DNA from: Escherichia coli
GTDB taxonomy: Bacteria; Pseudomonadota; Gammaproteobacteria; Enterobacterales; Enterobacteriaceae
Reading direction: 5' to 3' (one strand)
DNA length: 64,000 nucleotides
NCBI RefSeq assembly: GCF_016026235.1
Contig: NZ_CP065613.1
Part shown: piece after piece, positions 46,189 through 50,945 of the stretch
Layout: the number at the start of each line of letters is the position of its first letter
Numbering within the stretch: position 1 is the stretch's first letter
Program-made: the position numbers and the translations under genes
Notes under the pieces: model-generated
The model's input: only the letters and a program-made list of their open reading frames with translations
Databases searched by the model: none
Told to the model about the DNA's origin: nothing

Positions 46189-46886
46189 AAAACATCGCCG
46201 CACAGATGGTTAACTTTGACCGTGAGCAGATGCGTCGGATCGCCAACAACTTGCCGGAACAGTACGACGAAAAGCCGCAGGTACAGCAGGTAGCGCAGAT
46301 CATCAACGGTGTGTTCAGCCAGTTACTGGCAACTTTCCCGGCGAGCCTGGCTAACCGTGACCAGAACGAACTGAACGAAATCCGCCGCCAGTGGGTTCTG
46401 GCTTTCCGGGAAAACGGGATCACCACAATGGAACAGGTTAACGCAGGAATGCGCGTAGCCCGTCGGCAGAATCGACCATTCCTGCCATCACCCGGGCAGT
46501 TTGTCGCCTGGTGCCGGGAAGAAGCATCCGTTACCGCCGGGCTGCCAAACGCCAGCGAGCTGGTTGATATGGTTTACGAGTATTGCCGGAAGCGAGGCCT
46601 GTATCCGGATGCGGAGTCTTATCCGTGGAAATCAAACGCGCACTACTGGCTGGTTACCAACCTGTATCAGAACATGCGGGCCAATGCGCTGACTGACGCG
46701 GAATTACGACGCAAGGCTGCCGATGAACTGACCTGTATGACAGTGCGAATTAACCGTGGTGAGGCGATACCTGAACCAGTAAAACAACTTCCTGTCATGG
46801 GCGGTAGACCTCTAAATCGTGCACAGGCTCTGGCGAAGATCGTAGAAATTAAAGCTAAGTTCGGACTGAAAGGAGCCAGTGTATGA
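46185..46886 (+). CDS. P: Replication protein P (DnaB helicase loader)
   Basis: 233 aa matching lambda P (MKNIAAQMVNFDREQMRRIANN...). Confidence 0.9.
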   Translation: MKNIAAQMVNFDREQMRRIANNLPEQYDEKPQVQQVAQIINGVFSQLLATFPASLANRDQNELNEIRRQWVLAFRENGITTMEQVNAGMRVARRQNRPFLPSPGQFVAWCREEASVTAGLPNASELVDMVYEYCRKRGLYPDAESYPWKSNAHYWLVTNLYQNMRANALTDAELRRKAADELTCMTVRINRGEAIPEPVKQLPVMGGRPLNRAQALAKIVEIKAKFGLKGASV

Positions 46887-47173
46887 CGGGCAAAGAGGCA
46901 ATTATTCATTATCTGGAGACGCACAAGAGCTTCTGTGCGCCGGACGTTGCCGCGCTAACAGGTGCAACAGTAACCAGCATAAATCAGGCCGCGGCTAAAA
47001 TGGCACGGGCAGGTCTTCTGGTTATCGAAAGTAAGGTCTGGCGAACGGTGTATTACCGGTTCGCTACCAGAGAAGAACGGGAAGGAAAGGTGAGCACGAA
47101 CCTGATTTTTAAGGAGTGTCGCCAGAGTGCCGCGATGAAACGGGTATTGGCGGTATATGGAGTTAAAAGATGA
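46883..47173 (+). CDS. ren: Ren (Rex exclusion escape protein)
   Basis: 96 aa matching lambda Ren (MTGKEAIIHYLETHKSFCAPDVAALTG...). Confidence 0.85.
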   Translation: MTGKEAIIHYLETHKSFCAPDVAALTGATVTSINQAAAKMARAGLLVIESKVWRTVYYRFATREEREGKVSTNLIFKECRQSAAMKRVLAVYGVKR

Positions 47174-47243
47174 CCATCTACATCACTGAGCTTGTAACAG
47201 GCCTGCTGGTAATCGCAGGCCTTTTTATTTGGGGGAGAGGGAA

Positions 47244-47522
47244 GTGAACGATAGCTACCGACAGTTTGAAAACTGGTGGTCAAAAGACAAAAGCCAGTTC
47301 ACAGGAGACGATGAATTAAAAGAGTTTGCCTGGGTGATATGGCAGGCATCGCGCTCTGCTATTGAACTGGATATCGACTGGCCCGAATCGAATGACGACT
47401 TTTGGAAAGATGGTGAAGAAGGTGCTTATGCGATGGGTTATGAGGATGGGCGTGACAAAACGGTAATTGCAGTAATGAAAGCCATCAGGGCCGCAGGAAT
47501 CAAAGAAAAGAATTTCGATTAA
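47244..47522 (+). CDS. Hypothetical acidic prophage protein (GTG start assumed)
   Basis: ORF with upstream GGAGAGGG Shine-Dalgarno, inserted between ren and ninB. Confidence 0.4.
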   Translation: MNDSYRQFENWWSKDKSQFTGDDELKEFAWVIWQASRSAIELDIDWPESNDDFWKDGEEGAYAMGYEDGRDKTVIAVMKAIRAAGIKEKNFD

Positions 47523-47653
47523 GCAAATATCACTTCAATAAATCGCTTTTAAGGCATCACAATCGCTCTGTAGCGAGGTAAACGCGTGCAAGGTATTTAT
47601 ATAGCAGCGAGAATGAAAAATGCGTCAGAATGCGTTTGAGGAGGTTTTAAGAA

Positions 47654-47863
47654 ATGAGTTCGTTGACTGAGCTTGTCCGCGCCGACTTTCAGGAGAACAT
47701 TGGTCGTGCAAAGCGGTACTGGTCTGCTTCCAGACTTCCGACTGGCGAGAGACAGAAAACGCCCCTAAGCCACGGAGCTATCCGCGTGACCGCGTTCTTC
47801 GCCGGTTGGTTAAAATCGATAATGATTTTCAGTGTGACAGAATTATCCGGAGTCTGGATTTAA
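47654..47863 (+). CDS. Hypothetical small protein (moron candidate)
   Basis: 69 aa ORF with strong GAGGAGG Shine-Dalgarno 8 nt upstream. Confidence 0.45.
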   Translation: MSSLTELVRADFQENIGRAKRYWSASRLPTGERQKTPLSHGAIRVTAFFAGWLKSIMIFSVTELSGVWI

Positions 47864-47878
47864 AGTGAAGGAGTGAGC

Positions 47879-48175
47879 ATGAGCAAAGTATCACGAGGAA
47901 TGAAAATATCGCTTATTTTCATCCTTAATCCGCATCGTATCTTTTTGGCTTCAGCAGTATGGCTGTCATATTTTGTTTATTGGTTAGCAGATAAATTGGA
48001 TGATTTTGCGAAATGGCTTGAGAATTTTGCGAATGCGAGGTTTGAGTCATGGCCGCTTATCGGAGAGAGGATGTCTGACGAATTAAACCGGTATTACGCG
48101 GATAAGCGCAAGGAGAAGAGCAGGAGGGCAAGTGAAGCAATTATTCCTGCTTCGCAACGAAGCAATCAGAAATAA
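47879..48175 (+). CDS. Hypothetical small membrane protein (moron candidate)
   Basis: ~98 aa with one predicted TM helix (ISLIFILNPHRIFLASAVWLSYFVYWLA) and a basic C-terminus; AAGGAG Shine-Dalgarno. Confidence 0.45.
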   Translation: MSKVSRGMKISLIFILNPHRIFLASAVWLSYFVYWLADKLDDFAKWLENFANARFESWPLIGERMSDELNRYYADKRKEKSRRASEAIIPASQRSNQK

Positions 48176-48599
48176 CGCCATAGACGCCATTCTCTCACTA
48201 CCCATCGACGACAAGTCACCCCACGAAGTCCACGTTAGAGAACCAAAGCGGAGCAATCCTCAAAACCGCCTTATGTGGGCGTTATTGCAGGACGTATCGC
48301 GTCAAGTGCTATGGCATGGTCAACGGCTGGCGCCGGAAGACTGGAAAGACCTGTTCACTGCCCTGTGGCTTAAGACCAAAAAACTGGAGCAACGAAGTGC
48401 GCCTGGTATCGACGGTGGCGTTGTCATGCTTGGTGTGCGTACCAGCAAAATGCGAAAGGCCAGCATGACTGAGCTTATCGAAATCATGTTCTGGTTCGGC
48501 TCAGAGCGCAACGTGCGGTGGAGTGATGACTCCCGGCGAGAGTATGAATGGTCACAACGGAAAGGTAACACGGACAATATGCGAGGGTTGAATGATTAA
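48132..48599 (+). CDS. ninB: NinB-family recombination protein
   Basis: 155 aa; ...NPQNRLMWALLQDVSRQVLWHGQRLAPEDWKDLFTA... parallels lambda NinB (...DQNRKLWACLGDVSRQVEWHGRWLDAESWKCVFTA...). Confidence 0.75.
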   Translation: MKQLFLLRNEAIRNNAIDAILSLPIDDKSPHEVHVREPKRSNPQNRLMWALLQDVSRQVLWHGQRLAPEDWKDLFTALWLKTKKLEQRSAPGIDGGVVMLGVRTSKMRKASMTELIEIMFWFGSERNVRWSDDSRREYEWSQRKGNTDNMRGLND

Positions 48600-49122
48600 G
48601 CATAAATCAGAAACACCAAAAGAAGTTAGAGACTGCTGGCAAACGCCGCTTTGGCTTTTTGATGCACTGGATATTGAGTTTGGATTCTGGCTTGATTCGG
48701 CAGCGAGCGACAAAAACGCTCTGTGCGCTCACTGGCTAACTGAGGCCGACGACGCGCTAAATTCTGAGTGGATAAGCCACGGTGCAATCTGGAATAACCC
48801 ACCGTACAGCAATATCAGGCCGTGGGTGGAAAAAGCCGCTGAGCAGTGCATACAACAGCGACAGACGGTAGTGATGCTTGTGCCAGAGGATATGTCTGTC
48901 GGATGGTTCAGTAAGGCTCTGGAGAGTGTTGACGAAGTTCGCATTATCACTGATGGACGGATTAATTTTATCGAACCATCGACAGGGCTGGAGAAGAAGG
49001 GAAACAGCAAAGGCTCCATGCTGCTGATTTGGCGACCGTTCATCAGTCCTCGACGGATGTTTACTACCGTATCCAAAGCGGCATTGATGGCGATCGGGCA
49101 GGGCGTCAGGAGGGCGGCATGA
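48592..49122 (+). CDS. Phage DNA N6-adenine methyltransferase (Dam-like)
   Basis: 176 aa with NPPY motif (IWNNPPYS). Confidence 0.75.
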
Positions 49123-49338: not shown

Positions 49339-49644
49339 TTAAGGATGAGGCTGAATTTCTTCAGGTCGGTATTTTGTTGAGAGATGAGAGATGTCAACTT
49401 CTCTCTCTGCTTTTTCAAGACTCCATGCCATCTGAAGACGAATCCATGAGGCCGGAGTTCCTCCAAGAACGGCGGCGAGACGAACAGCCATTTCAGGAGA
49501 GATTGCCGCATTTCCTGAAACCAGTCGCTGAACAGTGGAAGGCGCAACATCAAGCGCTCTTGCCAGCTCTCTGATCCCAATATTCTGATCTTCCAGAATA
49601 TCCGCAATAATTTCTCCTGGATGAGGGGGGTTAAACATCGTCAT
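49339..49644 (-). CDS. higA: HigA-type antitoxin (HTH_XRE)
   Basis: 101 aa; HTH region IGIRELARALDVAPSTVQRLVSG; immediately downstream of and overlapping the toxin gene. Confidence 0.8.
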   Translation of the reverse strand: MTMFNPPHPGEIIADILEDQNIGIRELARALDVAPSTVQRLVSGNAAISPEMAVRLAAVLGGTPASWIRLQMAWSLEKAEREVDISHLSTKYRPEEIQPHP

Positions 49645-49922
49645 TAATGGTAATCCTCGTAGTTAAGAATATAAGCGTCACCGTCACGAAACTCGAAGGT
49701 GATCCTCCAGTTACCGGAGACGGAGACAGACCACGTATCGGCCCTGTCTCCTTGCAACTGGTGCAGCCTGTAACCGGCAAGGTTAATATCATCAATGATT
49801 TCGGCTTGATCTATCACCTGAAGGCGCATTCTAAGGCGTTTAACATGATTGGGATTTACGCCTGATGCACTTCCAGTTTCAAAGAAACGTTGAAGTCCTT
49901 TGTGTTTCCAGCTTTTTATCAT
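49644..49922 (-). CDS. higB: HigB-type toxin (RelE/ParE superfamily mRNA interferase)
   Basis: 92 aa MIKSWKHKGLQRFFETGSASGVNPNHVKRL...NWRITFEFRDGDAYILNYEDYH, typical HigB. Confidence 0.8.
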   Translation of the reverse strand: MIKSWKHKGLQRFFETGSASGVNPNHVKRLRMRLQVIDQAEIIDDINLAGYRLHQLQGDRADTWSVSVSGNWRITFEFRDGDAYILNYEDYH

Positions 49923-50258
49923 GTTTGTTTCCTGTTGCGTTACGCGAATCATTATAGAGTGTGTTGTGTCATTCGCAACCGTTGGTTTGACAAAAACACA
50001 TATCCGGGGCTATATTCCCTGAACGCCAGCAAATCTGGCGTCGGGATTGGCGTCCCGGATATCGAAACGGTGCATAACCGCGCTGGCGGTTTTTTTATGC
50101 GCTAAGCACAGTCACATTCGCGATTTATGGTGGGCTGTGTGGGGGAGTTGAGAGACTCGCCGGATGTTTCGACCGGTTACGCCAACCCTGCACAGTTCAC
50201 CACCCAGCGATTGGCGTCGCAGGTGGTGAGTTAAAAACCATCGAAACGCGAGGTCGTT

Positions 50259-50945
50259 ATGACTGTTCAGATTTCTGTCAAAAACCTTTCCCCTGTTACC
50301 TATAACCAGATTCCGGTAATCACAACTGAGTTGCTTGCCCGCCTTTATGGAACAGAAACAATCCGTATACAGCAGAATCACCATGAAAATAAATCTCGGT
50401 TTATTGAGGGAAAGCACTTCTTTAAAGCTGTTGGTGATGAACTCAGAAATTTGCGACTAGTTTTAAACGAGTCGCAAAATGAGGTGAAAATCTCTCCCAA
50501 AACCCGCTCGCTCATCCTCTGGACAGAACGAGGCGCAGCCCGCCACGCAAAAATGCTCGAAACCGATCAGGCGTGGGAAGTGTTCGAAAAACTGGAAGAC
50601 TGCTATTTCAGCCAGACTTCGAAAAGCGCAGGTCATCACGAGAAGAAAACCAGCGAGCTTTCTGCAAAAGATGCAAACAGTCTGGTATGGTTGTGGGATT
50701 ATGCCAACCGCTCACAGGCATTATTCCGCGAACTGTATCCGGCGCTAAGACAAATTCAGTCTAACTATTCCGGCAGATGCCACGACTACGGTCATGAGTT
50801 CTCGTATGTTATCGGAATGGCGAGAGACGTTTTAATCAATCACACACGAGATGTTGATATTAATGAGCCAGACGGACCAACGAATCTTTCTGCATGGGTA
50901 AGACTTAAGAACAAAGAATTACCTCCTTCACTACATCACTACTGA
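50259..50945 (+). CDS. ORF6N-domain antirepressor-like protein
   Basis: 228 aa; N-terminal ORF6N-like segment ([36 protein letters not shown]). Confidence 0.55.

Follow-up and report, generated by a model that had tools for sequence, protein, structure and literature searches.

Small genes between ninA and ninB of an Escherichia coli prophage: a likely recombinant of a lambdoid cassette slot

In phage lambda, the genes ren and ninB are separated by a gap of only 73 bp, and no additional genes are present between ninA and ninB. Likewise, in phage P22 ninB directly follows ninA (PMC4837284, table). The lambda terminator tR2 is located 30 bp past the AUG of NinA and 16 bp ahead of its stop codon, and a maximal termination efficiency of ~0.9 has been reported (PMC4824070). 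Other phages carry extra genes at this place: in the Salmonella phages ST64T and L, the cluster orf90-orf69-orf86-orf98 is found between ninA and ninB, and Shiga toxin (Stx) phages harbor a cluster including a Lar-family zinc-finger protein. Here, the corresponding region of an Escherichia coli prophage is described. It is located within a stretch of 64,000 nucleotides (contig NZ_CP065613.1, RefSeq assembly GCF_016026235.1), which as a whole is called the window in the following, and comprises three small open reading frames (ORFs) on the plus strand, ORF1 to ORF3, lying between ren and ninB and each preceded by a good Shine-Dalgarno sequence.

An initial annotation, made from the sequence alone, had reported these ORFs and interpreted them as a moron cluster with a possible promoter of its own and as a candidate defence-like module, without assignment to a known family. 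The observation is partly confirmed and the interpretation partly supported. All three ORFs could be assigned, namely ORF1 to the phiTE_015 family (PF26207), ORF2, in a frameshifted form, to DUF7301 (PF23975) and ORF3 to the orf98 family (PHROG 5603). In addition, the 25-codon ninA mini-ORF, the tR2 hairpin and the frameshift in ORF2 were not part of the earlier description. Taken as a whole, we consider it rather probable that the region is a mosaic slot of N-dependent delayed-early genes, which may contribute to host takeover or counter-defence in the lytic cycle. It represents an ordinary accessory mosaic, which is already catalogued, and no self-contained defence module; the three gene families as well as the mosaic slot itself are already known.

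The interval between ninA and ninB as a cassette slot

The left border of the slot is sharp. Lambda, the window, the Stx phage vB_EcoS_P32 (P32) and phage L have one and the same sequence that begins at the 3' end of ren (in phage L, at that of the P22-type helicase gene) and extends across both the tR2 hairpin and the Shine-Dalgarno sequence GGGGGAGAGGGAAGT; divergence sets in exactly at the start codon. In lambda, this Shine-Dalgarno sequence is directly followed by ninB, whereas in the window it serves ORF1 and ~890 bp of cassettes are placed in between. At the right border, the sequences reconverge approximately 50 bp before the start of ninB and within this gene, the 5' end of which represents the right cassette junction. 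The earlier view of a three-gene insertion relative to lambda holds for the extra genes between ren/tR2 and ninB, which however occupy a cassette slot and do not form a single module.

The content of the slot was sampled in three ways, through orf98 (36 viral-contig loci), through ninB (80 loci) and through phiTE_015 (80 loci). The ninB sample contained 26 architectures, among them a 68-aa hydrophobic protein alone (34 loci), a DUF7301 gene followed by Lar (24 loci) and an empty slot (two loci). Here, phiTE_015 was present at a base rate of ~35%, and orf98 was found in none of the 80 loci. Sampling through phiTE_015 yielded 33 architectures, including phiTE_015-DUF7301-Lar (~37 loci), phiTE_015 directly before ninB (~25) and three loci with orf98. 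In the orf98 sample, a phiTE_015 gene lies upstream in 36/36 loci and is directly adjacent in 30 of them, 2–5 nt apart; orf98 always abuts ninB, and a DUF7301 gene is present in a minority, standing immediately before orf98 in 5/36. Judged from these alignments and samples, lambdoid and P22-like phages have a hot spot of cassette exchange in the ninA-ninB interval.

The window itself is, as its sequence suggests, a recombinant of a Stx-phage-type left part (ren, tR2, ORF1 and the spacer behind ORF1), a DUF7301 allele and an orf98 gene of Salmonella P22-like phages. The left part, including ninA, is 99% identical to P32, which is 933W-like, and to VT1-Sakai (H0042-H0046); the first ~80 bp of the spacer are fully identical in P32, and ORF1 is present at 99% DNA identity in many Stx1 and Stx2 phages and E. 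coli O157 prophages as well. The DUF7301 allele displays 98% DNA identity to E. coli E6 and is known from E. coli prophages of poultry and pig origin. ORF3 is 94–98% identical to orf98 of the phages ST64T, L, ST160 and SE1 (97% for phage L), and all 26 phage records are from Salmonella. The NinA peptides of the window and of phage L are 96% identical, and over the ninA segment lambda, P32 and phage L are near-identical to the window. The arrangement as such is rare, as only a few E. coli draft assemblies were found to contain it and none of the complete RefSeq genomes of this species. The slot of the window would consist of three independently assorting single-gene cassettes, of which ORF1 and ORF3 are intact and ORF2 is inactivated.

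Two further features of the slot became visible in these samples. Its commonest lone occupant is the very hydrophobic protein of 68 aa mentioned above (phrog_1165, E-value (E) = 1e-34; 34 ninB-sampled loci including L051; L002 1406–1612), which may be a better candidate for a small membrane protein than orf98. Furthermore, Lar in the slot ahead of ninB of lambdoid phages always directly follows a DUF7301 gene, in 24/24 ninB-sampled loci and in ~37 more loci sampled through phiTE_015 (viral contigs L048-L127 and L140-L219; also L001 2986–3448), and this sequence pattern suggests a functional link between DUF7301 and Lar. In the window, Lar has been lost and the DUF7301 frame is broken.

Layout of the locus and its three genes

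The features of the locus are summarized in Table 1. The gene ren has the same position as in lambda. Its stop codon is overlapped by the start of ninA, tR2 is encoded within ninA, and ORF1 follows directly downstream. A tR2-type hairpin was recovered by a terminator scan as well as by RNA folding, and in the alignment every base of hairpin and T-tract is the same as in lambda tR2. The geometry of tR2 and NinA in the window also agrees with the lambda description (PMC4824070). The Shine-Dalgarno sequences are GGAG, 6 nt ahead of the GTG of ORF1, GAGGAGG, 9 nt ahead of the ATG of ORF2, and AAGGAG, 5 nt ahead of the ATG of ORF3.

Table 1. Features between ren and ninB of the window.
Feature	Position	Strand	Description
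ren	46883..47173	+	Left conserved flank, last gene ahead of the terminator; 'Ren protein' or 'protein ren' in matching records
ninA mini-ORF	47170..47247	+	25 codons, hydrophobic peptide; phrog_5907, E = 1.2e-18
Intrinsic terminator, equivalent of lambda tR2	47199..47232	+	8-bp GC-rich stem (47199–47222), then TTTTTATTT
ORF1	47244..47522	+	Intact, 92 aa, GTG start; PF26207 / phrog_343
AT-rich spacer	47523..47653	+	131 bp, 39.7% GC; travels with ORF1/DUF7301 cassettes
DUF7301 pseudogene	47654..47868	+	PF23975, phrog_1785; chimeric ORF2 reading 47654–47863, 69 aa
ORF3	47879..48175	+	Intact, 98 aa; phrog_5603; final 44 nt overlap ninB
ninB	48132..48599	+	Recombination mediator, right conserved flank; PF05772 in identical loci; NinB in matching records

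For ORF1, a scan of the PHROG profiles revealed a match to phrog_343 (E = 4.6e-29), and precomputed matches to PF26207 (Phage_phiTE_015) are available for the identical protein and for 60/65 homologues. A profile built from ORF1 relatives retrieves phiTE_015, the protein that gave the family its name, with E = 1.5e-14. A Pfam scan of ORF1 gave noise only (Glyoxalase_4, E = 0.077), the library used presumably being one without the PF26207 model. The identical protein is encoded on at least 1000 enterobacterial contigs, where it is labelled 'MULTISPECIES: hypothetical protein [Enterobacteriaceae]'. The ratio of nonsynonymous to synonymous polymorphisms (pN/pS) of 0.14 indicates purifying selection, and ORF1 is a real coding gene.

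ORF2, by sequence comparison, is a plain pseudogene of DUF7301. The PHROG scan splits it, with residues 1–36 matching phrog_1785 and residues 38–69 matching the N-terminal part of a 'Lar-like' profile. In a three-frame translation, the conserved C-terminal half (…PRSYPRDRVLRRLVKIDNDFQCDRIIRSLDLK) appears in another frame, which ends with the TGA at 47866–47868. The in-frame part of ORF2 corresponds to the N-terminal 34–36 codons, and the last 32 residues are out-of-frame. The difference is a deletion of one nucleotide in the A-run at 47756–47759, which is A4 in the window and A5 in the relative: aligned to the closest intact relative, the 'DUF7301 family protein' gene of E. coli E6, the sequence reads GACAGAAAAACGCC in E6 and GACAGAAAACGCC in the window. 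The best E. coli DNA matches to the ORF2 region are all one base longer than the query. After repair of the frame, the resulting protein of 71 aa shares 94% identity with the protein of E6, agrees completely (100%) with intact genes on five viral contigs (L013, L016, L022-L024), and matches PF23975 (1–64/65) with E = 3.5e-23, the query being approximate (KR for NA at 35–36). A PDB sequence search with the repaired protein returned nothing below E = 0.6. Although an ORF is indeed present, the assumed gene is a chimeric reading that results from the A5 to A4 deletion and of which only residues 1–36 match DUF7301. The frameshift is a warning against taking the ORF2 product at face value.

The same A4 allele is present in seven independent assemblies or runs (L004-L009 and L011), which are 99.7–100% identical in sequence and in all of which ORF3 is intact; a sequencing error as cause of the frameshift is thereby ruled out. 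Together with the window, eight identical copies show ORF2 frameshifted and ORF3 intact, and the chimeric ORF2 product was found on ~5 contigs only. Absence or interruption of the ORFs in related prophages had been named in the initial annotation as speaking against its reading; ORF2 is interrupted already in the window. Programmed frameshifting or slippage requires a slippery heptamer or a run of sufficient length. Both were dismissed by inspection for the A4 site, since no X XXY YYZ heptamer is present, the run is too short and intact A5 relatives exist.

The match of ORF2 to the 'Lar-like' profile is an artefact, as it covers profile positions 26–57 and the zinc finger is located at 72–130. 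In this profile, phrog_599 ('Lar-like restriction alleviation protein', 262 positions), the N-terminal part represents an alternative frame of DUF7301 genes located upstream of Lar. Therefore, frameshifted or read-through DUF7301 genes, as in the window at 47765–47860, are labelled Lar-like, which is an annotation trap. The minus strand of the pseudogene carries a promoter-like site (47869 to 47842) together with a weak hairpin resembling a terminator (47778–47761). The two would bound an antisense RNA of ~70 nt, and both signals lie within chance expectation.

ORF3 aligns with residues 1–92 to the full length of phrog_5603 (1–92/92, E = 1.4e-51), and a Pfam scan resulted in noise only (HTH_RNase_II, E = 0.094). 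The exact protein is known from ~8 E. coli draft contigs with the same arrangement. At the sensitivity of megablast, none of 5,426 complete E. coli genomes yielded orf98, and it is likewise missing from the ninB-sampled loci, which also goes against the initial annotation. The family is small, with 13 representatives at 50% identity among 1.84 billion proteins. In comparison to homologues at 38–54% identity, the ratio of nonsynonymous to synonymous substitution rates (dN/dS) of orf98 is 0.2–0.35; judged from these deep comparisons orf98 is a real coding gene. For DUF7301, a value of 0.43 likewise points to a real gene.

In the orf98 family the N-terminus is basic, an invariant Asn17-Pro18-His19 interrupts a hydrophobic stretch, and Pro59 and Gly62 are conserved. 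A single-sequence AlphaFold2 model of ORF3 displays a helical hairpin with helices 3–56 and 58–87 (predicted local distance difference test score of 79). For ORF3, a single transmembrane helix had been proposed. A hydrophobic stretch is indeed present, but it is borderline, as the best Kyte-Doolittle mean over 19 residues is 1.45 (family range 1.4–2.3) and the invariant NPH motif lies mid-stretch. A crude sum on the Hessa scale is positive in each orf98 member, and an N-terminal net charge of +2 to +4 is conserved. Membrane insertion of ORF3 is thus plausible from its sequence, though borderline, and one of the inserted genes probably encodes a membrane-associated protein.

The basic tail that had been noted for ORF3 exists as well, but its last residues, ASQRSNQK, are imposed by the 5' end of ninB and recur in otherwise unrelated genes of the slot. 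They are common to orf98, Lar of P32 and the phiTE_015 member P0058, which abuts ninB. The final 8–12 residues are shared because the 5' region of ninB encodes them in another frame. The shared tail (48117–48175 in the window, with equivalents in L001 and P0058) marks a fixed recombination junction and the conserved overlap of 44 nt with ninB, and orf98 overlaps ninB in 34/34 viral loci that reach that far.

Further downstream, a toxin-antitoxin pair is located on the minus strand, opposite in strand to the nin genes. It consists of a HigB-like toxin of 102 aa (49644–49952; PF05015, E = 4.8e-21) and the antitoxin HigA of 101 aa (49339–49644; TIGR02607, 89 bits versus a cut-off of 47.7) and lies between the Dam methylase/NinE-like ORF and an ORF of 228 aa (50259–50945), the latter at the place of an annotated antirepressor in matching E. 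coli records. By its sequence, HigB/HigA is a genuine moron-like toxin-antitoxin insertion, situated ~1.2 kb downstream of the cluster. An 88-aa ORF at 49029–49295 matches NinE over residues 54–88 only (NF007245, 34 bits, cut-off 88) and in its longer form overlaps the 3' end of the Dam methylase gene; the true start of the NinE-like gene is probably an internal ATG.

Expression and possible role of the cassettes

The spacer between ORF1 and the DUF7301 pseudogene is AT-rich as described before, with 39.7% GC in comparison to 49.6% for the whole window, and had been regarded as a possible site of an own promoter. A consensus scan of 46800–48700 revealed no sigma-70-like promoter on the plus strand (shuffled sequence gave a mean of 2.0 over both strands together), no Rfam match at E <= 1 was found in the same interval, and the predicted fold of the spacer is no more stable than that of shuffled sequence (z = -0.21). 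The only plus-strand terminator recovered by the scan is the upstream tR2 (47199–47222), and none lies downstream of the cluster. Given their location past tR2, the overlap of ORF3 with ninB and the fact that no own promoter is found, the genes are more readily understood as N-dependent delayed-early genes than as morons. From this anatomy and established lambda biology we infer delayed-early transcription from pR: ORF1 to ORF3 would be transcribed solely after N-mediated antitermination at tR2, and they would not be expressed in a repressed prophage.

Given such an expression, the role of ORF1 and ORF3 would lie in host takeover or counter-defence in early lytic growth and not in the protection of the lysogen. 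A counter-defence role is our best guess, albeit a weak one by association alone, and it is prompted by Lar being present in the slot, by ren upstream and by phiTE_015 standing beside Lar in a virulent myophage. Lar, which acts in restriction alleviation, is the sole cassette of the slot with a named function, and Lar of P32 matches TIGR03655 with 62.3 bits (cut-off 39.6). The protein Ren protects lambda from Rex exclusion. In the Pectobacterium phage phiTE, a virulent rV5-like myophage, phiTE_015 is directly followed by phiTE_014, which belongs to the Lar family (TIGR03655, 46.7 bits, same cut-off of 39.6); the neighbourhood of phiTE_015 and Lar therefore reaches beyond temperate phages. Gene 015 overlaps the start of gene 014 (L139 5970–6648; JQ015307 8969–9647), and in the latter the N-terminal 53 residues constitute the Lar-family zinc finger, fused to an extension of ~80 aa. 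The orf98 protein would act at the inner membrane, anchored via its N-terminal, NPH-containing hydrophobic segment, and through its charged helical hairpin it would contact a partner from host or phage, the phiTE_015 protein being one possibility.

The function in defence that had been considered earlier is not borne out. The PADLOC models gave no match at E <= 1 to the four products, and the phiTE_015 family is also present in a virulent myophage. NCBIfam likewise returned no match for any of the four, TIGR03655 (Lar) included, and PDB sequence searches with an ORF1 profile and with ORF3 gave nothing below E = 0.6. Foldseek did not find a match of the ORF3 model in BFVD, and ORF3 contains no CxxC zinc-finger motifs. 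Thus, the proposed search for remote homology and structure assigned families, yet profile, PDB-sequence and fold searches gave no functional lead. Likewise, no paper on 'DUF7301' or 'phiTE_015' was found when searching the literature by family name, and nothing relevant on orf98 of ST64T. The nin genes and these proteins are not mentioned in a preprint on an accessory-gene screen (10.1101/2023.04.06.535777), and gene 015 is not discussed in the phiTE paper (PMC3475682).

Several points weigh against the reading as N-dependent lytic cassettes of a mosaic slot. The recurrent adjacencies of phiTE_015 with orf98 and of DUF7301 with Lar partly contradict an independence of the cassettes. The promoter scan was a simple consensus search, which a weak or non-sigma-70 promoter in the spacer may escape. 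Furthermore, no sequence, profile or fold match ties ORF1 or ORF3 to a characterised protein. Finally, close orf98 alleles are near-neutral with a pN/pS of 0.88, a value of little power as control frames gave 1.49 and 0.50; a premature stop at codon 80 is present in 3/16 orf98 alleles and the gene is frameshifted at one locus (L045), so that orf98 may be dispensable or decaying in some lineages.

Of the alternatives, a conserved two-protein module formed by ORF1 (phiTE_015, soluble) and ORF3 (orf98, membrane-associated), which in the window is split by the dead DUF7301 cassette, survives best, although it appears doubtful. The phiTE_015 gene accompanies orf98 throughout the orf98 sample even though its alleles are diverse (41–100% identical to reference sequences), and this has to be compared with the base rate of ~35% in ninB-sampled loci. 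Distant orf98 relatives directly follow phiTE_015 in P0098 (54% identity), P0101 (45%) and P0104 (37%); in P0099 (46%) one gene separates the two, and in P0105 (31%) the order is reversed, the orf98 relative preceding phiTE_015. This adjacency in either order, down to 31% identity, is mildly unexpected. However, the association is one-sided, as phiTE_015 is far more common than orf98 and mostly stands with DUF7301-Lar or directly before ninB, and a fixed order of cassettes in the slot could also produce it. Moreover, 2/7 distant orf98 relatives (P0103 and P0107) have no detectable phiTE_015 neighbour, and 5/7 against a base rate of 35% is marginal (P ~0.06 by our own arithmetic, which ignores phylogeny). 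The linkage of the two sequences is therefore suggestive in view of the base rate, but not decisive. In a more specific version, orf98 and phiTE_015 would form a conserved early-lytic two-component module of lambdoid and P22-like phages in the counter-defence slot of Lar, acting on a membrane-associated target of the host such as a defence effector or exclusion protein; this we regard as somewhat less likely still.

Considerably less probable is that the genes are inert cargo, which would have been left behind when Stx-phage-like and P22-like nin regions recombined and would now be decaying in the lineage of this prophage. The pseudogene, the signs of decay in orf98 alleles listed above and the rarity of the exact arrangement would fit to this idea. 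Against it stand the purifying selection on ORF1 and the wide distribution of the identical protein, and the fact that orf98 is intact in the window and that its family retains length, motifs and a low dN/dS across deep divergence. The Shine-Dalgarno sequences and the translational coupling to ninB are also retained.

Weakest, and in our view improbable, is the original proposal of a moron that is expressed in the prophage. Here, a promoter in the spacer would drive a pair of soluble ORF2 and membrane-bound ORF3 with a function in superinfection exclusion or abortive infection or of a toxin-antitoxin-like kind: the hydrophobic segment and charged C-terminal part of ORF3, the AT-richness of the spacer, the true toxin-antitoxin insertion HigB/HigA in the same nin region and a weak similarity of the Lar family to the RalR toxin model, far below its cut-off, speak for it, but ORF2 is broken in all eight copies while ORF3 is intact and can therefore be no indispensable antitoxin or partner, DUF7301 adjoins orf98 in just 5/36 viral loci, the products match no toxin, antitoxin, PADLOC or NCBIfam family, phiTE_015 occurs in a virulent phage, and neither a plus-strand promoter nor a downstream terminator was found by the scans, with tR2 upstream and ninB overlapped.

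The practical weight of the locus is small, as it contains three catalogued families and adds one more recombinant of a well-known mosaic region. Since the only characterised occupant of the slot is an anti-restriction protein, phiTE_015, DUF7301, orf98 and the phrog_1165 protein are nevertheless cheap candidates for a counter-defence screen, and two two-gene hypotheses are on offer, namely phiTE_015 with orf98 and DUF7301 with Lar.

Comparison with described systems

Classical morons and exclusion genes such as bor and lom of lambda, gp15 of HK97 and sieA and sieB of P22 are small, dispensable for plaque formation, and some of them encode small membrane proteins. Promoter and terminator are part of each such unit, and the prophage expresses it. 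In contrast, no such promoter or terminator was found for the cluster of the window, nor any similarity to defence models.

The cluster of the Salmonella phages ST64T and L is closely related. Its orf98 is 95% identical to ORF3 and displays the same overlap with ninB, orf69 is a DUF7301 relative with 55% identity to the repaired ORF2, and orf86 is a phiTE_015 relative with 33% identity to ORF1. The cluster is preceded by the same ninA/tR2 element as in the window. However, the order is different, with DUF7301, phiTE_015 and orf98 following each other and orf90 as an extra gene; all genes are intact, the 131-bp spacer is missing, and in place of lambda P and ren the P22-type helicase gp12 lies upstream.

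In the Stx phages, which share the left part with the window, a DUF7301 gene is located at the same place and the same ninB junction is used. This DUF7301 gene is intact and has only 59% protein identity to the allele of the window, and the third position is taken by the Lar-family protein instead of orf98. Lar, known with RalR from the Rac prophage, thereby occupies the exact slot of ORF3, just upstream of ninB and overlapping it, and shares the ASQRSNQK end, whereas its CxxC zinc finger has no counterpart in ORF3, which also does not match the Lar profile.

In terms of expression, lambda itself offers a parallel. As described above, window and lambda do not differ between the 3' end of ren and the Shine-Dalgarno sequence behind tR2, and the logic of the operon with its N-dependent readthrough, which is established lambda biology (position of tR2, PMC4824070), would be shared by both.

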